A DNA stretch of 64,000 nt from Ignavibacteriales bacterium. Lineage in GTDB: Bacteria > Bacteroidota > Ignavibacteria > UBA10030. The translations under genes were made by a program, and so were the position numbers. The stretch lies in contig JACPLA010000021.1 of NCBI GenBank assembly GCA_016186715.1, positions 640 through 64,639 of the forward strand, in the 5' to 3' direction. The notes under the pieces were generated by a model. That model searched no databases. It was not told the origin of the DNA and was given only the letters and a program-made list of their open reading frames with translations. The number at the start of each line of letters is the position of its first letter. Positions within the stretch are counted from its first letter, which is position 1. This document shows positions 14,027 through 26,890 of this stretch, piece after piece.

Positions 14027-15601
14027 TTATTTCCCTCCTTTCGCACGTTCTACAGCTTGGTTGAGCGCGCGAACAGTCAGAGTCTTGACCATAGCTCGTT
14101 TGTACTCTGCAGGACCGCGAAGATCAGATGAGGGCTGCGAGGCTTTTGCTGCAAGGTCGCCCGCCTTCCCCATCAGATCGTCATCCGGTTTTTTCCCTCG
14201 CAATAATTCCTCTGCTTCCTTCGCCTGAATAACCGTAGGTCCAACGTTCGTCAATCCAATGCCGACCTTTTCTATCTTGTCACTCGTATCGAGCGTCAAT
14301 TGAACCGCTACGGCAGCAACGGCGAAATCCCCAACTTTTCGCTCAAGTTTAAAGTACGCGCCTCCGGTCCGTCCACCCGGAGTCCGCACACGAATTTCAG
14401 TAAGTATCTCATCCTGCTTGAGCGCTGTCTCAAACAATCCGGTAAAGAATTGGTTGATGGGAATTGTGCGCTCACCCTTGGCGCCCGTTACTACTACCTC
14501 TGCACCGAGAGCCACCATTGTTGCAGGATGATCATTGGCGGGATCCGCGTGAGCCAAATTTCCGCCAACGGTTGCCATGTTTCTCACAAGAGGATCGGCA
14601 ATGACTTTTGCAGTATCCGCGATGATCGGATACTTCGAACGAATCAGATCGGAAGCATCGAGGTCTGACTCGCGTGTCAGAGCGCCGATCCGGAGAAATC
14701 CTCCCGATTCTTTGATATAGCTCAGTCCATCGAGACGGTTGATGTCAATGAGCATTGGTGGCGTAGCCAACCTTAGTTTCATCATGGGGATGAGACTGTG
14801 GCCGCCGGCCAGAATCTTCGCGTTCTCTCCATGCTTTTGCAGCAGCGAGATCGCCTCGGAGAGCGTTGTGGGCCGGAAGTATTCAAATGAGGGCGGGATC
14901 ATTGTTGCCTCCATTCTTCCGTGAGGAGTTAAGTGAGAAAGGTAATACCTTCGGTAGTAAGGAACCTGCGGAATGTTTCCATCGATGTTGATAACGACTT
15001 TTACCCCCTCGAGCGACATCTCAAGAACCTTATCGATCAGTGTGTTCACCTGATCAGTGCCCATCCATTGTAACCTTCTGCGAACCAATAGCGCCGCAAG
15101 TCCATGCCAGGCCGACCAAATCGCAAGAGTTGTTGCTTCAGCATCAGATTGTCGATTTCCATTACGCGCCAGGCACGCCTGAACATCGTTCCGAAGGAGA
15201 TCTAACATTTGGTATGTTGTCTGTTTGACTTCTTCCTGGGAGCGATGTTGGGTGGGCTTCCGCATGATGAACATCAGGTCGTAATACTCCGGATACTTCA
15301 GAGCAAAATCAAAATAGATTCTGCCGTGCTTTCGAAGCCGCTCCAATGGTTCTGCTATCAACTCACGCTGTTGTTGAAACGCAACAAGTTTTTCGAAGGC
15401 ATCTTCGTATAAGTGGTAGAAGATGTCGTTCTTATCCTTAAAGTAGAGGTAAATCGAAGAGGGACTATATTCGATGTGGTGGGAGATTTTTCGGATGGTA
15501 ACGTTCTCGAATCCTTCTTCGAGAAATAAGCGCATCGCGGCATCAAGCACTTGCCTTTTGAATGCAGACTTTTCTCGCTGTTTTCGTTCGTCCAGGCCCA
15601 A
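14027..15601 (-). CDS. coxM: single ORF encoding a TetR-family HTH domain (aa 1-200) joined in frame to the FAD-binding medium subunit CoxM (from about aa 234)
   Basis: The N-terminus has a TetR HTH (VTIRKISHHIEYSPSSIYLYFKDKNDIF). CoxM begins at MIPPSFEYFRPTTLSEA...LAGGHSLIPMMKLRLA. There is no stop codon between the two parts. Confidence 0.8.
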   Translation of the reverse strand: MGLDERKQREKSAFKRQVLDAAMRLFLEEGFENVTIRKISHHIEYSPSSIYLYFKDKNDIFYHLYEDAFEKLVAFQQQRELIAEPLERLRKHGRIYFDFALKYPEYYDLMFIMRKPTQHRSQEEVKQTTYQMLDLLRNDVQACLARNGNRQSDAEATTLAIWSAWHGLAALLVRRRLQWMGTDQVNTLIDKVLEMSLEGVKVVINIDGNIPQVPYYRRYYLSHLTPHGRMEATMIPPSFEYFRPTTLSEAISLLQKHGENAKILAGGHSLIPMMKLRLATPPMLIDINRLDGLSYIKESGGFLRIGALTRESDLDASDLIRSKYPIIADTAKVIADPLVRNMATVGGNLAHADPANDHPATMVALGAEVVVTGAKGERTIPINQFFTGLFETALKQDEILTEIRVRTPGGRTGGAYFKLERKVGDFAVAAVAVQLTLDTSDKIEKVGIGLTNVGPTVIQAKEAEELLRGKKPDDDLMGKAGDLAAKASQPSSDLRGPAEYKRAMVKTLTVRALNQAVERAKGGK

Positions 15602-16586: not shown

Positions 16587-17122
16587 TCACACAGAATAGA
16601 AGCTTCTATCCAGACTACTGTATTGAATGGCTTCGCTCAAATGCTCAGTCCTGATCTGATCACTTCCCACAAGGTCGGCAATGGTGCGTGAGACTTTCAA
16701 AATTCGGTCATAAGCCCTCGCCGAGAGGCCCAGCCGATTCATCGCCGTTTTCAGCAACTCTGCCCCCGCCGTATCGATCTGACAGAATTCCTTGATTTCC
16801 TTCGATTCCATGTCGGCGTTGCAATACAGGTCTTTTCGTTTTTCGAATCTGCCAGTTTGAACCCCCTCGCACGAACAACACGCTCACGTATGGCCGAGGA
16901 ATTCTCGCCCGAGCGCTTCGAGGAAAGCTCCGTGTATTTGACAGCAGGGACCTCGACGTGAATATCGATTCTGTCCAGCAATGGACCTGAAATCTTGCCA
17001 ACGTATTTCTGGATTTGCATCGGAGTGCACATGCATTCCTGATTCGGGTTTCCGTAATTGCCGCACGGACAGGGGTTCATTGCCTTTTTGCCATATTCGA
17101 CTTTCAGCGCCAAAACCATCAA
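16587..17122 (-). pseudogene. comM: comM/yifB (Mg-chelatase-like ATPase) C-terminal remnant, 5'-truncated and frameshifted
   Basis: Frames encode [46 protein letters not shown] and ...LSARAYDRILKVSRTIADLVGSDQIRTEHLSEAIQYSSLDR. The AAA+ N-terminal two-thirds is absent. Homology ends exactly where the HTH-paralog leader begins, near 17080. Confidence 0.75.
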
Positions 17123-17505
17123 AACTGCCTACTGTTCTGAACACTATCGGGGATCACATCAGAAAGCGACGGCTTGAGCTTGGACTTCTCCAGCGTGAGG
17201 TTGCAGACCGTCTCTCTGTCAAAGTCGACACCATTCTCAACTGGGAACACAACAGAACGGCACCAACGCTCCGATGCCTTCCAGGGGTGATCGCGTTCCT
17301 CGGTTACGATCCATCGGATGACAACCCAAGAACACTGGGCGAAAAGCTGATGAAATATGGGAAAAGTTGTGGCATGAGTCAAAAAGAAATGGCGAGCCGG
17401 ATTGGTATTGACGCAACAACGTTGAGCAGGTTGGAGAGAGATAAGGGCAGATGCTTTGATACGGTACTCAAGAAAGTTCATGACTTCTTGAACACGCATG
17501 AGTAA
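16981..17505 (+). CDS. tandem-HTH XRE-family regulator, paralog B
   Basis: Shares the leader (ttgcctttttgccatattcgactttcagcgccaaaaccatcaaaactgcctactgttctgaac) and the protein core with paralog A. The real start is probably downstream of 17100. Confidence 0.65.
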
Positions 17506-17568: not shown

Positions 17569-18168
17569 TTAATTACGCAACACTTCGGTCACTTGTGCTT
17601 GCCATGCTTTGATCACTTCTTCTGTGGTCTTAATTTCAGCGCCATAATTTGTCTTGAGATATTCGAGCCCCTCATTGTGGGCTTTTTCGTCGAATGCTTC
17701 AACGCCATCCTGCAAAATAACCAGATTGTAGCCTCTGAAAAATGCATCGGCAGAAGTATGGCGATCACAGATGTTTGTATGTAAGCCAGTGACATACAGC
17801 TTTGTCACGGCAAGGCTTCGCAGGAGTTGGTCGAGACCAGTCTCGAAAAATGCTGAGTAGGTGCGTTTTTCAAACTGATAATCTGGGGGTCCTGGTCTTA
17901 ACTCGGGAATCACCTCCGCGCCCGCGGATCCCTTCATGGCATGCTCACCCCATACACGAAGTTCAAAATCCTCCCTTAAATGCGCATCTCCAGCATAAAT
18001 CACAGGAACACCTTTCTTCCGAGCTTCTGCCAGAAATTTCATGAGATTGGGAATAATCCTATCTGCCCGTTCGCAGCGCAACTTTCCCGTGACAAAATCA
18101 TTGAGCATATCAATAACGAGAACCGCCTCGGGTTTTCTTGCCATAGGTCTTTCGCTCCTTTCTTTCAC
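17569..18168 (-). CDS. isochorismatase-family cysteine hydrolase (nicotinamidase-like)
   Basis: VLVIDMLNDF ... catalytic Cys in LYVTGLHTNICD. Confidence 0.8.
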   Translation of the reverse strand: MKERSERPMARKPEAVLVIDMLNDFVTGKLRCERADRIIPNLMKFLAEARKKGVPVIYAGDAHLREDFELRVWGEHAMKGSAGAEVIPELRPGPPDYQFEKRTYSAFFETGLDQLLRSLAVTKLYVTGLHTNICDRHTSADAFFRGYNLVILQDGVEAFDEKAHNEGLEYLKTNYGAEIKTTEEVIKAWQAQVTEVLRN

Positions 18169-18231
18169 GCTATCAACTGTTGTGATCCAAGGTAGTCAAA
18201 GTGGGAAGGTAAATCAAGGACCCTGCTGTAA

Positions 18232-20487
18232 CTACTCGTGGTAAAATAATTGATCAAAAGCGTACCTCACGCTTAGGTACGCGCCTCTTCCTCTCGTTGT
18301 AAAACCGTTTATTTCGGAGTACTTGGTGTCAAAGACATTCTCTATTCGAGCGCTCACCGAAAGATGTTCATCAACGTGATATCGCTGCGACAGGTCCAGA
18401 AGCGCATAGTCCGCCACCGGGGTACTTGCTAGAGCGCCATAAGGGCCGAGCTTTGAACTATAAAAGATATCGCTTCGCGCACCGACATATCTCATATCAA
18501 TCCTGAGAGCAAGGCGTTCAGTTGGCATATATATCAGACTCAGGTTTGCAGTGTTAGGTCTACGAACCAATCCTAACGTTTCCACTTCTTTTGTGATGAA
18601 TGCCCCATTGCTATACACCTGGACGTGGTTTCCGTCGGTCTGTGGAGTAGCAATGCTATTAGGGTTGTACGTTAATTTCCCGCTTACCAAGCTCAAGTTG
18701 CCTGAAAAAAACAAATGATCGGTTATCATGGAAGTGATCGTAAACTCGATGCCGTTGGTCGTTTGCTTACCCACGTTCAAATATGTATCTCCCCTGAAGT
18801 CGTCCCGAACCCAACTGTTGCCCAGCGTATCTATACCGATATTCTTATCCCAGAGGTACACGTTCTCAATGGCATCCTCAACGATGGTGTTAAAGTAAGC
18901 AACAGACAGACTCATACCCTTGCCAAGTTTTTGCTTAAAGCCGATCTCGTATGAAGCTGAGTTTTCCGGTTTCAGCTTCCTATTCCCCCTTGTGATGCCG
19001 GAAATATAGTTCTTGTCGGGTGCATACAGTTGGTAAAGCGATGGAGCGTTGAAGCCGGTTGAGTAGGAGGCATACAAGAGCGCATCGCCTCCGATTCTCA
19101 GCGATGGATTGATCTCGTAAGTAATATTTACGCCATAGGCGCTGTGGTCATTCAAACGCGCACCTAGTCCGATTGAAAACGGACTGAACATTTCATCCAC
19201 CAAGCTGCCATTCACGTTAACGTGCGCGAAGATGTTTCTGGTCGATGAGTTCAAATTCAATGTATCAAGATCTGATCTCGACTCATAGACACCGAAGGCG
19301 CTTCTCGAATAGAAATACGTCTTTGAGGTCATCGTTTCCGTGTACAGACCGCCACCCAATATACCTTCGAAATTTTTCAGTTTCAGGTTTCCCTGGATCT
19401 CATTGGTCAATGTTGTTCCCTTCCAGGTGCCATCGAAATACGTGTGGTCGGTCGTTCCCATGTTGTCCACAATCGAAGAATCATCGACTGCAACCCTTTT
19501 CATATCAGAATAACCACCAAGATACTTGATGCTGAGCTTATCACTAAGTTTGTAGGAAGCACCATAGGTAAATAGGTTCCTTCTAAAATTCAGCGTGTAG
19601 TTATCGTCATCCCTATACGCACTTTTGTCGATATCGGTCCTGTGAGTGGTATTCTTGTATGAAGCATAAACGTCGAGCCGGTCGTTTCTGAAGCCAACTT
19701 TGCCGACGACGTCTCTCTTATGGAAGCCATCTTTATCCCGATTTTTGAAGATGGCCAGATTCGTCACCGTATCTACTGTGGCGTCTAACCCCCTGACATT
19801 GGAATTGTTGATCTCCGTGTTGACATAAAGACCTGCGGGATCGGTATAATTCAAAAAGAGATTTGCAGAGAACGCTGAAGTTCCTTCGCCGAAGGTTCCC
19901 GTTTTCAACTCTACATCGGTATTGAATCCTGGCTTTCTGTTCTTCTCCGTAGCAATGTTCACGGCGCCACCGATAGCTGAGGAACCATAGAGTGTGCTAT
20001 GAGAACCTCTCACAATCTCGATGCGGTCAGCGGCTGCAAACGATAGTTCAGACAAATCGAGCGCATTATTCACACCTGAGGGATCCGTGATGCGGACTTC
20101 ATCGATCATAATCGTCGTTTGATTGCTTGCCGCGCCCCGGGTAAACATGCTTTGGAGCATTCCCGGATTCTGTCCGGTACCGACGACGTACAGACCTTCC
20201 TGTTGTGAGAGTAATTCCGCAACGCTGGCATAAGTGGAATTCTTCATCTGCTCTTTCGTAAGTAGCGTAATGCTTCTTCCCACTTCCATAGGATTCCTCT
20301 CACTCCGGGTGGCGGTTACGACTATTTCCTGAAGTTGATAAACTTTAACGGTATCCGCACTGGTTGAATCGTTAACAGCCTCGTTGGCAGACATCAACAC
20401 TGAGCCGGCACGAAATTCAGATAGGCCTTGTGCTCCTGCGCGAGCGGCAAGCAACCCCATTACGGAAAGTATAGCAATGCTCTTCAT
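18232..20487 (-). CDS. TonB-dependent outer-membrane receptor
   Basis: 751 aa with a signal peptide, a plug domain (IEIVRGSHSTLYGSSAIGGAVNI), a long beta-barrel and a C-terminal aromatic residue. Confidence 0.85.
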   Translation of the reverse strand: MKSIAILSVMGLLAARAGAQGLSEFRAGSVLMSANEAVNDSTSADTVKVYQLQEIVVTATRSERNPMEVGRSITLLTKEQMKNSTYASVAELLSQQEGLYVVGTGQNPGMLQSMFTRGAASNQTTIMIDEVRITDPSGVNNALDLSELSFAAADRIEIVRGSHSTLYGSSAIGGAVNIATEKNRKPGFNTDVELKTGTFGEGTSAFSANLFLNYTDPAGLYVNTEINNSNVRGLDATVDTVTNLAIFKNRDKDGFHKRDVVGKVGFRNDRLDVYASYKNTTHRTDIDKSAYRDDDNYTLNFRRNLFTYGASYKLSDKLSIKYLGGYSDMKRVAVDDSSIVDNMGTTDHTYFDGTWKGTTLTNEIQGNLKLKNFEGILGGGLYTETMTSKTYFYSRSAFGVYESRSDLDTLNLNSSTRNIFAHVNVNGSLVDEMFSPFSIGLGARLNDHSAYGVNITYEINPSLRIGGDALLYASYSTGFNAPSLYQLYAPDKNYISGITRGNRKLKPENSASYEIGFKQKLGKGMSLSVAYFNTIVEDAIENVYLWDKNIGIDTLGNSWVRDDFRGDTYLNVGKQTTNGIEFTITSMITDHLFFSGNLSLVSGKLTYNPNSIATPQTDGNHVQVYSNGAFITKEVETLGLVRRPNTANLSLIYMPTERLALRIDMRYVGARSDIFYSSKLGPYGALASTPVADYALLDLSQRYHVDEHLSVSARIENVFDTKYSEINGFTTRGRGAYLSVRYAFDQLFYHE

Positions 20488-20514
20488 AATTACTCCTTGC
20501 TGAGTGATTCGGAA

Positions 20515-21198
20515 TTATTTATTAACAAGAGATAGTTTTTTCACTTTGAGATACATCATCGAATCCTTTGTTTCCTTTGAGAAGTCGTTGAGGACGATTG
20601 TACGTCTGAAGAGCGGAAAGTCCAGCACAGTGGTATGGTATTCGCCATTTTCGCCACAAAGATCCATTCCTGTTTCTTCGCTTATTTCGTACAACCGCTC
20701 AGCGGCTTTCGTATCAAGGTCACAGCCTGGCCAACTGTCAGTCAACAAAGGCCGTTTCACACACGAAAAAATCACTTTGAAGTTATTCGTTATCAGTTTT
20801 TCAAGAAGTTCCTTTCGATTCCGTTTCCATAGCGGCGTCACGACTTCAATCCCGACAAAGGCTGCACATTCTTTTACCCAATTTGGATGAGCACGTATCT
20901 CATCGATATCACCTGTGATAACAACTGAGACCCCACGCTGCTCTTTCAAGGACCGAAGGGCTGATTTGTATACTTCGTTGAACGGTTGGGTAATTTCGAT
21001 GGTCCGATGGAGAATCTGGAGAGCCTCTGCCTGATATTTCATTACATGCACAGGGTGAGCGAGAAATCGCGGATTTGAGGGCGCGAAGGTAATCAGCCCT
21101 TTGATCTCATAGCCGAGGCTTTGGGCTTCATACAGTGCCAGACAGGAATCTTTACCGCCGGTCCATAATACAACGGCACTGCCTAAGAGCTGATTCAC
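20515..21198 (-). CDS. DUF71/MJ0570/Dph6-like PP-loop ATP pyrophosphatase, copy 2
   Basis: PP-loop WTGGKDS and the GENGEYHTTV motif. It overlaps the upstream paralog by 4 nt. Confidence 0.75.
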   Translation of the reverse strand: MNQLLGSAVVLWTGGKDSCLALYEAQSLGYEIKGLITFAPSNPRFLAHPVHVMKYQAEALQILHRTIEITQPFNEVYKSALRSLKEQRGVSVVITGDIDEIRAHPNWVKECAAFVGIEVVTPLWKRNRKELLEKLITNNFKVIFSCVKRPLLTDSWPGCDLDTKAAERLYEISEETGMDLCGENGEYHTTVLDFPLFRRTIVLNDFSKETKDSMMYLKVKKLSLVNK

Positions 21199-21956
21199 AC
21201 GCTTCTCCCTGACTCAGCAATGGGGATTAAATCGCAATACCAAAAGCCATTGTCAAAAGGCTTAGAGCCGCTGCTATTGCAGGCATATTGAGAATTGCCG
21301 TCCTGTTGTGTTGGTAGATATTTTCGATGTACGATCTCGCCGACTTCGAATTCTATCGGCTTTTTGAAAAGAGGGCCGTCGTAGACAAATGAATGAAATT
21401 CCCCGTACTCCCCGCAGGGATCGACATTGTCAGGGAGATCCTTGATGAAAGAATCATCAATAGCACGTCCCACGAAGGACTTATCTAGGAATCTATCGTT
21501 CACACACACGGTGGTTGCCTTAAACCCCAGCTCAATGAACTCTCGCATCAACTGATGAGTTGAAATCTTCCAGAGCGGAAAGACGGCGTTCAGGTTTAGC
21601 TCGGCGAGTTTGTTTTCCCTGTACTTGCGGAGATCTTCCAGGAAAATATCGCCAAAGACACAGACTTCCGTGCCGCTATTCTTCAGCCTTACCAGCGTTT
21701 CCTTCATGATAGTTTCATACGTCTTCATATCGGGCATCTCTGGGATGAGCATTTTGACCAGGGGTATTCCAATGCTTGAAGCCTGTTCATCAAGCAGCTC
21801 AACTCTGACCCCGTGCATAGAAATCCGACGGTACTGCTCGTTAACACTGGTGAGCAACCAAGAAACAGAGTGTTCTCCAAGTGTTAAGACCTTATGTAGG
21901 CACAGAGCGGAATCCTTACCGCCGCTCCAATTGAATACTGCTTTCTGCTTTTGCAC
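21195..21956 (-). CDS. DUF71/MJ0570/Dph6-like PP-loop ATP pyrophosphatase, copy 1
   Basis: PP-loop NWSGGKDS and the GEYGEFHSFV motif. Confidence 0.75.
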   Translation of the reverse strand: MQKQKAVFNWSGGKDSALCLHKVLTLGEHSVSWLLTSVNEQYRRISMHGVRVELLDEQASSIGIPLVKMLIPEMPDMKTYETIMKETLVRLKNSGTEVCVFGDIFLEDLRKYRENKLAELNLNAVFPLWKISTHQLMREFIELGFKATTVCVNDRFLDKSFVGRAIDDSFIKDLPDNVDPCGEYGEFHSFVYDGPLFKKPIEFEVGEIVHRKYLPTQQDGNSQYACNSSGSKPFDNGFWYCDLIPIAESGRSV

Positions 21957-22035
21957 AATTCAGACCGACGTATTGTAATCGTAGCTCCCGCATTCGATGA
22001 CAGGCGAGCTTATTTTGAAGCAGTTATTTGTTCAA

Positions 22036-22956
22036 TCACATTTTCATCCATCCTGATCGACAATGCTTCGCTGGAAACAGATCAGGGTGAAATACCTCAG
22101 CAAGTATTTCCAGAGAGTCTACTAATCTTGGGCCGGGGCGATTGAAATAGTGACTCCCTTCACCGATATACACCTCATGCTCTCGCACTGCCTTGAGTGC
22201 ATTCCATCCGCGTTTCTTTTCCAAAAAGGGCATATCCTTTAATGACCGCTGAATTGAAAATCCGCAGGGTGCAATGAGGATCTTATCCGGATCCTGTAGG
22301 ATGAGGTCCTCAAAACCGATCCAGCGCTTACCGTCATCAAGAAAGACATTCGAACCGCCAGCCATCTCTATCAATGGTATCATCCAGTGTCCTGCGACCA
22401 TAATCGGTTCGATCCATTCGATATGTGCGACCCGAGGGTGATGGGAGCATTCTTTTGTCTTGGACTGCACATCTTCAAATGATGTCTTCATCTTGCTGAC
22501 TACTTCGTTGCCTTTTCGTTGAACATCGAGATGACCTGAGACAAGCACAATGTTTTCCAATACCTGTTCCAGGCTCTTTGGATTCAAGTCTATGACAGTA
22601 ATATTGTCTTGGTGAAGACATTCATTGAGTGCCTCTCTCAATTCATCTGTGCTCACAGCACAGACCGCACATTGTGACTGCGTAATAATGTGCGTCGGTT
22701 CGAGTGCCCTGATCCTTTCCACATTGACCCTGTAGATTGATAGAGCCTCCCGCAGTATTACGCTCACTTCCCTGCTGATCTCAGGACTCGTTCCGCTTGA
22801 CCGGTACTTCGGCTGGCTGCAAACAGGAAGCTGCTCAATACCAGGAGGATAATCGCATTCATGCGAACGCCCGACAAGCCGATCCTTCAAGCCGAGCGAA
22901 CAAACAATTTCTGTTGCGCTGGGTAGCAACGAGATGATGCGCTGTTGTGGCGCCAA
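22036..22956 (-). CDS. BtuF/TroA-like (class III) substrate-binding-fold protein without a signal peptide
   Basis: IISLLPSATEIVCSLGL...GRSHEC matches BtuF-type cobalamin/siderophore binding proteins. Only 15 nt separate the start from the upstream gene, which leaves no room for a leader peptide. Confidence 0.65.
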   Translation of the reverse strand: MAPQQRIISLLPSATEIVCSLGLKDRLVGRSHECDYPPGIEQLPVCSQPKYRSSGTSPEISREVSVILREALSIYRVNVERIRALEPTHIITQSQCAVCAVSTDELREALNECLHQDNITVIDLNPKSLEQVLENIVLVSGHLDVQRKGNEVVSKMKTSFEDVQSKTKECSHHPRVAHIEWIEPIMVAGHWMIPLIEMAGGSNVFLDDGKRWIGFEDLILQDPDKILIAPCGFSIQRSLKDMPFLEKKRGWNALKAVREHEVYIGEGSHYFNRPGPRLVDSLEILAEVFHPDLFPAKHCRSGWMKM

Positions 22957-22971
22957 GGCCCGTTTCCTGAC

Positions 22972-23511
22972 TTAGATCCGGGATTCCGCCAAGGCCGGAA
23001 TTTTATGTTGTGCGAACTCAAATGAGCCGAAGAGCAGGCCGGAGTAGAAAAGAGCGCTCAACACAGTATTGCTAAAGAATGGTATCGCTGCGATGTAACA
23101 TTGAGCTAGTCCTGTCATGTTCATCGGATACAAGTGTCCTCCAGCCCATACCGCGAAATTCGTTATGATAAAGAATACGATTGAACCAGCCACCGAGGCG
23201 GCAATAATGTTGACGATTTTCAGACGATGCCGTAAGAGAAATCCCATCGTTGTCATCAAAGAGAAACATCCATAAATCACCAAACGCATCGCCGTGAAAA
23301 ACTCGTAGCCCTTAAGAAAGGCCAAACCAATATCGCTTAACACCATCGCAGCAAGGGGAACAACGTAGGCTGTTCTCCTGTCGGTAAAATAAGATCCTCC
23401 GAATAAGGCAAGAGCAATCATCGGCGTAAAGTTTGGGGGGTGTGGAATGAGTCGTGAAGCTACGGCCGCCAGCACCATTGAGATTAGGACCGTAATGCGG
23501 CTCTTAAGCAT
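22972..23511 (-). CDS. small polytopic membrane protein, possibly an ECF-type S-component
   Basis: 179 aa with 5 to 6 hydrophobic helices. It has a good RBS (aaaggagtaatcttATG) and is the first gene of the minus-strand operon. Confidence 0.45.
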   Translation of the reverse strand: MLKSRITVLISMVLAAVASRLIPHPPNFTPMIALALFGGSYFTDRRTAYVVPLAAMVLSDIGLAFLKGYEFFTAMRLVIYGCFSLMTTMGFLLRHRLKIVNIIAASVAGSIVFFIITNFAVWAGGHLYPMNMTGLAQCYIAAIPFFSNTVLSALFYSGLLFGSFEFAQHKIPALAESRI

Positions 23512-23608
23512 AAGATTACTCCTTTCTTGAATGATGAAGGATTTTGTAAGTTGGGGGGACTTTAATCACTTGCCTAGAATACGTTTGTGAATTCAGTGTT
23601 TTCGGCAA

Positions 23609-23641
23609 ACAAAAAAACCCCAACCTTCGAAAAGATTGGGG
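23609..23641 (-). terminator. rho-independent terminator on the minus strand (ccccaatcttttcgaaggttgggg followed by a T7 run)
   Basis: Perfect 8-bp GC-capped stem plus a T-run when read on the minus strand. It lies upstream of the uptake-operon promoter. Confidence 0.45.
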
Positions 23642-24240
23642 TTCAAGAAGTCAAGAAAAAGAAATATTCTCACTCGGGCGAACACCTTCCCTCGAAGGTT
23701 TCAAGCTGCTACGACTTGGCAGGTCTCCTGGCTTTCTCGATCCTTGATCGTCTTCCCATCCCGACTGTTGTCGGCACAGTGACGTTCGTGATCAAAGAGG
23801 AAATCTCACATTGGGTGAGTCGAGATCACAGTTGCGGGGCAGCTTCCGAATGTATCACGGAATTCCCTTTTCATCCCGGGCATTGCTTGCCGGGACACCA
23901 AATCATTCCATGTGAAAGAACGGTAATTCTTCGTCGCACGCCTATGTACAAAGATTCTCGACAAATGTCAAGAGATTGCAAGAGGGACAACCAAGATGGT
24001 GATGAACGGTCAGCAAGACCTCTTCTCGATGAGTGGTAGGGTACAAGCAATCAAGGGTCCCTAGTCTTTCTCACTTCGTGGACGAAATCCAAAGCGGGCT
24101 TTTTCAAAAGGCTCAAGACTGCATTTTCATACGTCGCGGTCCCTTTGCAGAACTACCCGAGTTATTTCAGGGGCCTTTTGGGAAACCATGCATGATATAG
24201 CATTCTCTCTTCAGGTTCTCAGCGGCGTTAACCAACAGGG

Positions 24241-24774
24241 TTGCGTTGCCAGAGTACGGGTCGGGTCGTCCTTACGGCCAAACGGCCAAAATCATCAGAA
24301 TTCCTTAAATCGCTCATTTCTCTGGGTGATCACATCAGAGCAAGGCGGCTTGAATTGAAGTTTTTGCAGAAGGACGTGGCTCGGGTTATTGGAGTCGATG
24401 AGACGACTGTCTACAATTGGGAGCGGGGGTATACAAGTCCGACGCTTAGGTATGTGCCGAGGATTCTGGATTTCCTGGGTTATGATCCGGCTCCCGCGGA
24501 GCCGAGGACGCTGGGAGAGAAATTGCTGAAGTATCGGAAGGACCGCGGGATAACTCAGAAGGAGCTTGCCCGGCGCATTGGGATTGACCCAACGACGCTG
24601 AGCAGGTTGGAGAGGACCAGCAGCAAGCGGGTTTTCCGAAGTGTTTTGCTGAAGGTTGAGGACTCTCTTCGCAAATGCTTCTGTGCGATCCTCGAGATCA
24701 TACTGTTTGCCCATAGAGCCCCCCTTTGGGAAGCACGAAATATCAAATCCGAAATACGAAACAAAAACAGATAA
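24241..24774 (+). CDS. tandem-HTH XRE-family regulator, paralog C; its 3' end reads through into unrelated sequence
   Basis: The core [47 protein letters not shown] is identical to paralog A at protein level and almost identical at DNA level. The C-terminal approximately 40 aa are not HTH-like. Confidence 0.65.
   Translation: MRCQSTGRVVLTAKRPKSSEFLKSLISLGDHIRARRLELKFLQKDVARVIGVDETTVYNWERGYTSPTLRYVPRILDFLGYDPAPAEPRTLGEKLLKYRKDRGITQKELARRIGIDPTTLSRLERTSSKRVFRSVLLKVEDSLRKCFCAILEIILFAHRAPLWEARNIKSEIRNKNR
24655..24714 (-). pseudogene. 20-codon stub of a four-helix-bundle (23S-IVS/Avd-like) protein gene
   Basis: MGKQYDLEDRTEAFAKRVLN compares with MKYDLEERLTNFAVRII of the intact copy at 41575. Nucleotide identity is high (ta[c/t]gatctcgagga). 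Confidence 0.35.
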
Positions 24775-25072: not shown

Positions 25073-26890
25073 TCATGCCTGCACCGGCTCAAGGTGGGTC
25101 CGGGCGAACCTCTCGAGCTCATTCTGAAATGCCGACAACTCCTCGTGAATATCGCGACGCATTCCCTCCCACCTTTTCTCGGTTCTCGAAAACAGATCTC
25201 GGTAGTACTCAATTCCATTGCACAGGTTGTTTCGGAACTTCCTAAAGAAGTTTCGCTGTTTCTCATCCAAAGGCTTCGCCGATTCACGAAACTGATCTTT
25301 GAGATAGTTGACGTAAAGCTTGAGCTCGTTGATAAACATGTGCGGACGATCCGACCTTCGGATGATATTCGTCCGCCCATAGATGTGATCCACCATTGTC
25401 TTGAGAGAAACGATCTCGGAGAAGTATGCAATATTCGGCCCAGGACACACCAGCGCACCATCCCCGCCCTGCAACCTGCTATCCATCCCATGAACAAGGA
25501 GCGCTCCTGCCCCCAGGCCGGCACAGAGGCATGACTTTTCTACAACACGGTCGAATTGAAACTGATATTCTTCCGGTGAAAGCCCCAGTCCTTCCAACTC
25601 CGAAATCTTCAGCTTTTGATACAGTCTCGACGCGACACAAATAGGGCGTTCTGTGAATTCGGTGCTAAATTCAAGATATTCCTTGGGACAGGAGCTTCCC
25701 GGCCTCCCACTGCCCACCAGCCTTTGGCGCTCGACATCCTTTGAGCTTCCCTTGAGGGTGTAGAAGGGAACACCCAGGGGGGATATGTGGCTGAGACAAA
25801 CATCGTTCTCCGTCGCAGCACCAAGTTGTTCTCGCGTGTGCGAATCAACGTTGGTAACCTCAGGAACGAGAAGGAAGGGTGTGCCCCATCCAACCGAATC
25901 CAGCCCATAGTGATCCAAAAGGAACTGATGCTCTTCAGCAGTCCCCACTCCACCCTGTGCCGTGAGTCTAAGCTCCATGGGTTGACGCGGAACGGCGCGT
26001 CCTTGTTTCCGCAAAGCTTCAGTAAGAATTTCGTGCGCCGATGTAACGAGCAACTCCCGATTGTTCTTGAATTCCTCCAAGATCGGGCCAATCAAGTATC
26101 CGTCGGTCGCAAATGCATGCCCTCCGCAGTTCAATCCCGATTCGATCCGATACTCCGACACCCACAATCCCTTTCTGGCAAGAAATTGCCCCTGAATACG
26201 TGCTGATCGGTAATCGCTCACTTTGAGTACAAGCATCTTTTTCAACTGCCCTTGCTCGTCAGGATAAAAATCCTCGAACTGCGCAATGTAACCATACAGA
26301 CGCGGGTTCATTCCTGCCGATAACACCAGGGAGGAGCGGAGCGTGCTTCGCGCAAATCCGCGGAGTGCGGCATGGGCATCATTATACTCCACGGGCAGCG
26401 GTTGCTCTTCTCGGTACGTCTGCTTGTCGAGCTTGGTCATAATGTTGACATCTATGCTGCCGGGGTGAAAGTGGTCGTTCACCCACCTCTCAAGATCCTG
26501 TTTCATCGCATTGTTCCGGACGAACTTCGTGAATCTCTGTTTGAGTTCCGAAAGGTCTGGAAGCATCTCAATATACTTCTGCAATTCGCCGCCTTTCTCC
26601 AGGAGAGAACACTTAAGACGGTCAAACCGTTTCTTCACGATCTTATCGATCAGGTTGAGATACATCGTAATCCTGCGCGCGCGATAATCGTCCTCTTCTT
26701 CACCGATCGGATCAAATGGAATGTCGCATTCCGTGCAATAGAGCTCGCGCATTGTTTCGATGAGCATATCATCGACGATCGAGATAACGGAAGATATCCC
26801 GTAATGTGCGACCTTGGCTGGCGTGTCAATGCTAAAGCCGGTTCCCATAACGGGTATGTGAAATGTGTGCGGCGTATTCGTTCTGTTCAT
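25073..26890 (-). CDS. large uncharacterised protein (605 aa), no confident family assignment
   Basis: Long uninterrupted ORF with plausible codon usage. Motifs GLNCGGHAF and GGVGTAEE hint at a nucleotide/FMN-binding barrel, but I cannot place it. Confidence 0.55.
   Translation of the reverse strand: MNRTNTPHTFHIPVMGTGFSIDTPAKVAHYGISSVISIVDDMLIETMRELYCTECDIPFDPIGEEEDDYRARRITMYLNLIDKIVKKRFDRLKCSLLEKGGELQKYIEMLPDLSELKQRFTKFVRNNAMKQDLERWVNDHFHPGSIDVNIMTKLDKQTYREEQPLPVEYNDAHAALRGFARSTLRSSLVLSAGMNPRLYGYIAQFEDFYPDEQGQLKKMLVLKVSDYRSARIQGQFLARKGLWVSEYRIESGLNCGGHAFATDGYLIGPILEEFKNNRELLVTSAHEILTEALRKQGRAVPRQPMELRLTAQGGVGTAEEHQFLLDHYGLDSVGWGTPFLLVPEVTNVDSHTREQLGAATENDVCLSHISPLGVPFYTLKGSSKDVERQRLVGSGRPGSSCPKEYLEFSTEFTERPICVASRLYQKLKISELEGLGLSPEEYQFQFDRVVEKSCLCAGLGAGALLVHGMDSRLQGGDGALVCPGPNIAYFSEIVSLKTMVDHIYGRTNIIRRSDRPHMFINELKLYVNYLKDQFRESAKPLDEKQRNFFRKFRNNLCNGIEYYRDLFSRTEKRWEGMRRDIHEELSAFQNELERFARTHLEPVQA

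Follow-up and report, generated by a model that had tools for sequence, protein, structure and literature searches.

A cobalamin riboswitch-controlled operon with a TonB-dependent receptor, a DUF6580 membrane protein, a leaderless BtuF-like protein and two DUF71-B12 paralogues: a probable corrinoid uptake and modification unit in an Ignavibacteriales bacterium

Background

Approximately half of the B12-dependent Gram-negative bacteria possess the TonB-dependent receptor BtuB while lacking BtuCDF, and most of the transporters that serve them at the inner membrane have yet to be identified (PMC6072759). BtuM from Thiobacillus denitrificans, a solitary S-component of the energy-coupling factor (ECF) type, transports B12 in organisms that have BtuB but lack BtuCDF (Rempel et al. 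2018, PMC6072759; PDB 8ovv/6ffv). Here we describe a six-gene operon located at 17569-23511 on the minus strand of a 64,000-nucleotide stretch of DNA from Ignavibacteriales bacterium (positions 640 to 64,639 of contig JACPLA010000021.1, assembly GCA_016186715.1; this whole stretch is referred to as the window). The operon stands behind a cobalamin riboswitch and, taken as a whole, most likely serves B12-repressed import through a TonB-dependent receptor and a DUF6580 membrane protein, with a BtuF-like protein as a cytoplasmic carrier of the tetrapyrrole type and ATP-dependent modification by two ligases of the DUF71-B12 subgroup.

The DUF71/COG2102 family was divided by de Crecy-Lagard et al. 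in 2012 into true Dph6 and a bacterial DUF71-B12 subgroup, which carries an ENGEF/YH motif where Dph6 has EGGE/DxE (PMC3541065). The majority of the subgroup (75 of 102 members) adjoins B12 transporter genes and 18 of the 102 adjoin cbiB, and in bacteria the subgroup shows a strict anti-correlation with CbiZ and co-occurs with CbiB (PMC3541065). DUF71 proteins are also often fused to ammonia-generating domains, and a putative role of the subgroup in the salvage of pseudo-B12 or cobinamide was proposed (PMC3541065). No later experimental work on DUF71-B12 function was found in the literature searched, where later papers merely cite the 2012 study.

Results and discussion

The operon and its riboswitch

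The operon resembles the BtuB-BtuFCD system of E. coli in that a cobalamin riboswitch governs the gene for a TonB-dependent receptor, and in that the binding protein has the class III (BtuF-type) fold. It differs in that no BtuC or BtuD was seen among the scanned open reading frames (ORFs), in that the BtuF-like protein has no signal peptide, and in that the ligand loops carry His and Cys instead of the Tyr and Trp of BtuF. The features are, in the order of transcription:

23701..23917, minus strand: cobalamin riboswitch aptamer RF00174 (cmscan, 91.4 bits against a gathering score of 31.5, E 2.3e-21, model positions 1-189, full length)
23605..23644, minus strand: intrinsic terminator of the riboswitch expression platform, a 13-bp G+C-rich stem followed by a U-tract (terminator scan)
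22972..23511, minus strand: DUF6580 membrane protein, 179 aa (PF20221, 192 bits), first gene
22036..22956, minus strand: leaderless BtuF-like protein of the Peripla_BP_2 family, 306 aa (Pfam match), second gene
21957..22035, minus strand: spacer with a decayed DUF5522 remnant (alignment to the DUF5522 ORF of the related locus L086)
21195..21956, minus strand: DUF71-B12 paralogue A, 253 aa, with a C-terminal GFWYCD tail (PF01902, 140 bits), third gene
20515..21198, minus strand: DUF71-B12 paralogue B, 227 aa, without the tail (PF01902, 129 bits), fourth gene
18232..20487, minus strand: BtuB-like TonB-dependent outer-membrane receptor, 751 aa (Plug and barrel domains), fifth gene
17569..18168, minus strand: isochorismatase-family cysteine hydrolase, 191-199 aa (PF00857, 147 bits), sixth gene

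An earlier reading made from the letters of this DNA (hereafter the sequence-only reading) had described six co-directional, tightly packed genes, and the coordinates, the strand and the short gaps (15, 79, -4, 27 and 63 nt in transcription order) agree with this. The 4-nt overlap that it reported between the two DUF71 genes is real, and the Pfam profile searches that it proposed confirmed the family of every one of the six genes. Because of the overlap and the short gaps, the six genes would be expected to share a single transcript. The isochorismatase-family gene likely begins in fact at the ATG of position 18144, with a product of 191 aa like that of its relatives.

A search for a riboswitch in Rfam, suggested by the same reading, was positive. 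The terminator reads GAACCCCAATCTT-TTCG-AAGGTTGGGGTTT, followed by TTTTTGTTTG, and its hairpin appears in the minimum-free-energy fold and the centroid fold alike. It lies between the aptamer and the first ATG at 23511, which has a Shine-Dalgarno sequence (AAGGAG) 7 nt ahead of it. As aptamer and terminator together form a classic transcription-attenuation platform, the operon is expected to be switched off by B12. A sigma-70 promoter scan gave hits no more numerous than in shuffled sequence, and no promoter is claimed. Homologous riboswitches precede related operons in the loci L022, L056, L081, L086 and L087.

In an Omnitrophica metagenome-assembled genome (MAG; L088, 1626-9629), a cobalamin riboswitch is located ahead of class Ia ribonucleotide reductase genes, which are followed on the same strand by genes for a TonB-dependent receptor, DUF6580, DUF71 and the BtuF-like protein. 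Class Ia is a B12-independent isozyme of ribonucleotide reductase. An FMN riboswitch in L081 (15258-15393) stands before a riboflavin biosynthesis operon, approximately 2 kb downstream of the unit of DUF71 paralogue A and the receptor, and is unrelated to the B12 finding.

The sequence-only reading had also held that this is not a standard ABC importer, and we agree. Neither an ABC permease/ATPase nor an ECF module or cob genes were found among the long ORFs scanned, the scan covering approximately 0.5-48.5 kb of the window (48.5-64 kb lay outside it).

Two DUF71-B12 paralogues

Both DUF71 proteins belong to PF01902 with an intact PP-loop, bear the ExGE[FY]H motif and are encoded together with B12 transport genes, as is characteristic of the DUF71-B12 subgroup of COG2102 (PMC3541065). 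Paralogue A has the PP-loop SGGKDS and the motif GEYGEFH, where EYGEFH is an N-to-Y variant common to its closest relatives, whereas paralogue B has TGGKDS and ENGEYH. The two are 30% identical to each other, and the best PDB matches of paralogue B are PH1257 (2d13) and PF0828 (3rjz). The clustering is seen here and in L022, L056, L081 and L086-L088, where a riboswitch, a TonB-dependent receptor gene and a BtuF-like gene occur in the same operon; in L022, L056 and L081 the orthologues of paralogue A are located directly behind cobalamin riboswitches.

The sequence-only reading had seen no described role for paired DUF71 proteins near TonB receptors. As regards the link of DUF71 to B12 this does not hold, since the described subgroup adjoins B12 transporters and both window proteins bear its motif (PMC3541065). 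The locus nevertheless differs from the published cases in its partners. In 2012 these were BtuCDF and cbiB; here they are a TonB-dependent receptor, DUF6580, a leaderless BtuF-like protein, an isochorismatase-family hydrolase and, in relatives, DUF5522. It also differs in having two divergent paralogues that recur as a pair. A-type proteins are recognised by a C-terminal GFW[YF]CD tail, B-type proteins by the absence of the tail and by E[EN]GEYH, and B-type copies accompany A-type copies in L086, L087, L101, L112, L120 and L134. As the order in L101, L112, L120 and L134 is A, DUF6580, B and the BtuF-like gene, and not the A-B tandem, the pair recurs in two different arrangements.

An identity as Dph6 (diphthine-ammonia ligase) was rejected. 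Dph6 of archaea and eukaryotes has the same fold and ATP pyrophosphatase site, with a likely chemistry of carboxylate adenylation followed by amidation. In the window proteins, however, the Glu of the EGGE/DxE motif (the catalytic E188 motif of Dph6) is replaced by His, and they score 101 (paralogue A) and 129 bits against the cut-off of 197 of the Dph6 equivalog TIGR03679. To our knowledge, diphthamide is absent from bacteria.

The proteins P0002, P0004, P0121 and many other bacterial DUF71 proteins are named 'diphthine--ammonia ligase' by NCBI, although the catalytic motif of Dph6 is missing from them and their scores do not reach the equivalog cut-off. Judged by these features the name is probably a propagated misannotation. 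Orphan A-type DUF71 genes, with no riboswitch or transporter gene, were observed in L084 (9334-10765) and L085. There an AHSA1/SRPBCC gene and a CWC Cys-rich mini-ORF of 62 aa are located upstream, the mini-ORF overlapping the start of the DUF71 gene by 4 nt.

DUF6580

Sequence searches of DUF6580 against the PDB, with a single sequence as well as with a profile, were useless, and fold comparison alone was informative. It revealed the ECF S-component/BtuM-like fold with six transmembrane helices, and the closest solved structure is BtuM. At the sequence level no homology was detected, as neither phmmer nor a 40-sequence profile retrieved a BtuM chain from the PDB at E up to 10. DUF6580 is a separate Pfam family. 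BtuM has an invariant cysteine in loop 3 (Cys80), whereas loop 3 of DUF6580 (residues 68-73) has no conserved Cys and the sole near-invariant Cys is C138, at the start of helix 6. Membership of the BtuM family was therefore rejected, given the missing loop-3 cysteine and the absence of a sequence-level match. The two also differ in distribution: BtuM occurs mainly in Proteobacteria, and DUF6580 in Ignavibacteria, Bacteroidota, Verrucomicrobia, Omnitrophica and others.

Besides C138, the residues H24, P26, N27, D60, Y80, W122 and Y128 are conserved. In S-components the substrate-binding side is the periplasmic face, and by this topology we infer that the conserved residues of DUF6580 lie on it. 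Some members of the family are labelled 'putative transport protein' by NCBI. By its predicted fold, DUF6580 is most likely a putative inner-membrane corrinoid permease that works like BtuM; as such a permease it would answer the puzzle of the missing permease that the sequence-only reading had raised.

A leaderless BtuF-like protein

Even when its ORF is extended as far as possible, the BtuF-like protein has its first conserved strand (RIISLLPSATE) starting at residue 6, which leaves no space for a signal peptide. The lack of a leader, already noted by the sequence-only reading, is shared by nearly all of the orthologues examined at related loci and of the 150 best family representatives. Orthologues in related loci have mostly 0-13 residues at most before the first beta-strand, with longer maximal ORFs in a few cases (e.g. 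21-24 residues in L054 and L145), whereas weaker, true periplasmic BtuF homologues at the same loci carry classic signal peptides. A full HMMER scan of 1.8 billion representatives yielded 801 clusters at E <= 1e-30, and in almost every one of the 150 best the conserved start lies at residues 2-8, which suggests a large cytoplasmic family. Lacking a signal peptide, the window protein has to act in the cytoplasm.

Its fold is that of a class III substrate-binding protein of the tetrapyrrole-binding branch. Near-invariant residues are H32, C34, C96 and C99 (C96-x-x-C99), C231, W181, W191 and an RPGPR motif. In the alignment H32-E-C34 falls on the ligand loop (SSYSDYP) of the BtuF proteins of E. 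coli and V. cholerae, and the remaining Cys are by homology predicted to lie on loops after beta-strands and to face the cleft. An identity as the periplasmic BtuF of a BtuCD transporter was rejected, since a signal peptide is not possible, permease and ATPase genes were not among the scanned ORFs, and the protein scores 33 bits with the BtuF model NF002894 against a cut-off of 234.

DUF5522 and gene fusions

The 79-nt spacer between the BtuF-like gene and paralogue A occupies the position of an intact DUF5522 ORF in L086 (7030-7239). It aligns to both ends of that ORF, and approximately 130 nt are deleted in the window, where no DUF5522 or CWC homologue was found elsewhere. Separate DUF5522/CWC genes follow the BtuF-like gene in L086, L087, L089, L105 and L117, whereas the domain is fused to the BtuF-like protein in L101, L112, L120 and L134 and to paralogue A in L103. 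The protein P0366 is a leaderless BtuF-like protein fused to DUF5522, a small CCxxxCxxCP domain, and one member (P0400) is fused to an AHSA1/SRPBCC domain.

A further fusion comes from a eukaryote. P0512 (643 aa) joins the BtuF-like protein, DUF5522 and a DUF71-like domain with WSGGKDS and GECGEFH, and is encoded by transcripts of the thraustochytrid-like Mucochytrium quahogii (P0512/P0498, transcriptome MMETSP0098). Thraustochytrids are known as B12 auxotrophs. The fusions suggest a joint cytoplasmic action of the BtuF-like protein, DUF5522 and DUF71 on a single substrate.

The receptor and the isochorismatase-family hydrolase

A signal peptide and a Plug domain are visible in the receptor sequence. 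A corrinoid cargo is supported by the riboswitch control, and the arrangement of riboswitch, receptor and DUF6580 recurs in many loci.

The best PDB match of the hydrolase is 3eef, an uncharacterised structure related to N-carbamoylsarcosine amidase, and the positions of the Asp-Lys-Cys triad are conserved in the alignment. The hydrolase scores below every equivalog cut-off, and identification as PncA, RutB or BiuH was rejected on scores of 55-62 bits against equivalog cut-offs of 174-378. The nicotinamide-type substrate that the sequence-only reading had considered finds no support past the generic isochorismatase fold. An isochorismatase-family gene is adjacent in close relatives only (L086, L081-083). 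Among the DUF6580 loci it was seen only in L150 and L123, approximately 3 kb off and with unrelated genes between, a weak link, and we treat the hydrolase as a lineage-specific accessory. Since DUF71 is often fused to ammonia-generating domains (PMC3541065), a function as an ammonia-supplying or trimming amidase can be speculated upon. The cobamide-remodelling amidohydrolases/phosphodiesterase CbiZ and CbiR are likewise salvage-stage enzymes encoded with corrinoid transport genes, and the hydrolase may play a comparable hydrolytic role; their folds are however unrelated to that of the hydrolase, for which a corrinoid substrate is hypothetical.

Conservation of the gene arrangement

The co-occurrence is conserved. 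L086, whose proteins are 83-92% identical, shares all six genes and their order, and subsets recur in many independent loci. L087 has the order DUF6580, BtuF-like gene, DUF5522, A, B and receptor, i.e. five of the six genes plus DUF5522. In L088 a riboswitch is followed by the ribonucleotide reductase genes, the receptor, DUF6580, DUF71 (B-type) and the BtuF-like gene, and in L022, L056 and the 77%-identical relative L081 by DUF71A and the receptor, with or without the BtuF-like gene and DUF6580.

A search seeded with DUF6580 alone returned 80 metagenome loci, 79 of which were scored for neighbours within 3.5 kb. DUF71 was found at 22 of these 79 and a BtuF-like protein, leaderless in those checked, at 19. 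In the 20 loci whose flanks reach 3 kb or more on either side, nhmmer detected a cobalamin riboswitch 13 times, and 15 of the loci show one or more B12-linked features; Rfam confirmed the riboswitch in 8 of 9 full-flank loci. The gene arrangement is far beyond chance.

Proposed function and alternatives

The control by RF00174, the DUF71-B12 motifs and the conserved synteny support the suggestion that the operon is an uptake-plus-modification unit, and point to a corrinoid. At low intracellular B12 the riboswitch would let transcription proceed past the terminator. Corrinoids would then be taken across the outer membrane by the BtuB-like receptor and across the inner membrane by DUF6580 as a solitary S-component-like permease. 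The leaderless BtuF-like protein would take up the corrinoid in the cytoplasm, where the His and the four Cys of its cleft loops could ligate cobalt or perform redox chemistry. The two DUF71-B12 proteins would adenylate a corrinoid carboxylate at the expense of ATP and convert it to an amide, either re-amidating incompletely amidated or deamidated corrinoids or performing a ligation in cobinamide or pseudo-B12 salvage. The hydrolase, as an accessory amidase, could supply ammonia or trim an unwanted amide. PP-loop enzymes such as Dph6, NAD synthetase and QueC adenylate a carboxylate and then amidate it. As the amidation proposed for paralogues A and B is drawn from this chemistry of the clade, we consider it quite possible, though short of probable.

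Several observations weigh against this interpretation. DUF6580 lacks the invariant loop-3 cysteine of BtuM and has no sequence-level similarity to it. The best NCBIfam match of the receptor is TonB-B12 TIGR01779, at 196 bits and below the cut-off of 600, and the top structural matches of the BtuF-like protein are haem binders, marginally ahead of BtuF. The isochorismatase gene is restricted to close relatives, and in L081 it is located upstream of the riboswitch and so outside the controlled unit. A shared B12 context, expected for A-type orthologues in cultured Bacteroidota, is contradicted by 74 of 80 genome loci, in which the A-type protein (55-68% identity; mostly Flavobacterium, Hymenobacter and Algoriphagus) stands alone with no riboswitch or transporter nearby; the link of DUF71A to B12 is hence lineage-dependent. 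Furthermore, we know of no biochemical activity for any DUF71-B12 protein, DUF6580, DUF5522 or the leaderless BtuF-like family.

A different cargo, such as haem, a cobalt chelate or another tetrapyrrole or metal complex, or DUF71 and isochorismatase genes that are unrelated and merely abut a B12 locus, seem very improbable to us. The unit is governed by a cobalamin riboswitch not only here but also in many phyla, DUF71 stands among transport genes whose order varies from phylum to phylum and is fused to the BtuF-like protein in a eukaryote, and the 4-nt overlap and short gaps favour a single transcript. In the 2012 proposal DUF71-B12 replaces CbiZ, remodelling pseudo-B12 or cobinamide to an intermediate that re-enters nucleotide-loop assembly via CbiB; here the hydrolase would cleave an amide, and the product would be re-ligated or activated by DUF71. 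The anti-correlation with CbiZ, the co-occurrence with CbiB and the 18 of 102 members beside cbiB speak for it (PMC3541065), as does the amidohydrolase-family gene beside DUF71 in the window, L086 and L081. Hydrolysis, however, needs no ATP pyrophosphatase, the isochorismatase gene is missing from most loci with DUF71, the BtuF-like protein and DUF6580, and cbiB, cobS, cobT and cobU were seen neither among the scanned window ORFs nor among the called genes and matches of the related loci inspected. We therefore regard this replacement as somewhat unlikely.

The Cys-rich character of the cytoplasmic proteins suggests yet another function. The BtuF-like protein, with or without DUF5522, and DUF71 might form an upper-ligand or redox chaperone of B12, a bacterial analogue of MMACHC/MMADHC in which Cys-Co ligation and the CxxC serve decyanation or dealkylation and the ATP step of DUF71 is other than amidation. 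The near-invariant H32, C34, C96-x-x-C99 and C231 and the fused or adjacent DUF5522/CWC domains are consistent with this, and Co-S ligation is used by BtuM (PMC6072759) and by MMADHC (PMC12501144). But no action of PP-loop enzymes on cobalt ligands is known, and the window operon has no DUF5522 yet keeps everything else, so that we find such a chaperone unlikely. Extending the corrinoid uptake and modification reading beyond this operon, we tentatively propose, as a rather doubtful generalisation, that DUF6580, the leaderless Cys/His BtuF-like protein, DUF5522 and the DUF71-B12 ligases may constitute a widespread, hitherto overlooked BtuCD-independent B12 route. It would lead from an S-component-like permease to a cytoplasmic carrier and on to PP-loop ligases that re-amidate damaged or incomplete environmental corrinoids, with a fused version of the cytoplasmic part in a thraustochytrid eukaryote.

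Genomic neighbourhood

The operon has a slightly lower G+C content (0.46-0.47) than its flanks (0.49-0.52). It is bracketed by paralogous double-HTH XRE-family genes, 56% identical, at 16981-17505 and 24241-24774 on the plus strand, and a similar gene stands directly after the operon in L086 and L087 too. These may be a regulator or a mobility-linked neighbour, and from its position between the HTH copies it is plausible that the operon is accessory, as the sequence-only reading had supposed. Beside the upstream HTH gene, a 605-aa ORF (25073-26890, minus strand) gave no Pfam match at E <= 0.001.

Within the last approximately 17 codons of the receptor gene, ahead of the isochorismatase gene, there is a terminator-like hairpin with a T-run (18260-18282, minus strand). 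It could partly uncouple the last gene, but may be a chance match, since the terminator scan found 10 sites against 6.2 +/- 2.4 expected.

The remaining scanned long ORFs are housekeeping genes, namely a Cox/XDH-type molybdoenzyme cluster, lpx genes, bamA, clpB and citrate synthase. The molybdoenzyme cluster, with its maturation genes, is located at approximately 3.9-15.6 kb. It contains a 524-aa ORF (14027-15601, minus strand) with TetR_N and TetR_C as well as FAD_binding_5 and CO_deh_flav_C domains, which is either a genuine regulator-flavoprotein fusion or the result of the ORF caller merging two genes.

Implications

The association of DUF71 with B12 and the control of BtuB by a riboswitch are already known, and in this respect the view of the sequence-only reading that no described system matches the operon does not stand (PMC3541065). 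It does stand for those parts on which no paper was found. In the literature searched, no description came up of the BtuM-like fold of DUF6580 and its linkage to the riboswitch, of the large leaderless His/Cys BtuF-like family, of the DUF5522 link, of the eukaryotic triple fusion or of the recurrent pairing of A and B. No paper found there mentions DUF6580, and no relevant description of a cytoplasmic BtuF, of BtuN or of DUF5522 was found.

DUF6580 is a concrete candidate for the missing inner-membrane B12 transporters of bacteria that possess BtuB but lack BtuCDF. For bacterial DUF71, whose function has been a question since 2012, the leaderless carrier, DUF5522 and the A/B pair offer a minimal set for reconstitution. 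The analysis also flags a likely systematic misannotation of bacterial DUF71 proteins as diphthine--ammonia ligases. Should DUF71 enzymes indeed re-amidate corrinoid carboxylic acids, a new step, of salvage or repair, would be added to what is known of the B12 cycle in the environment.

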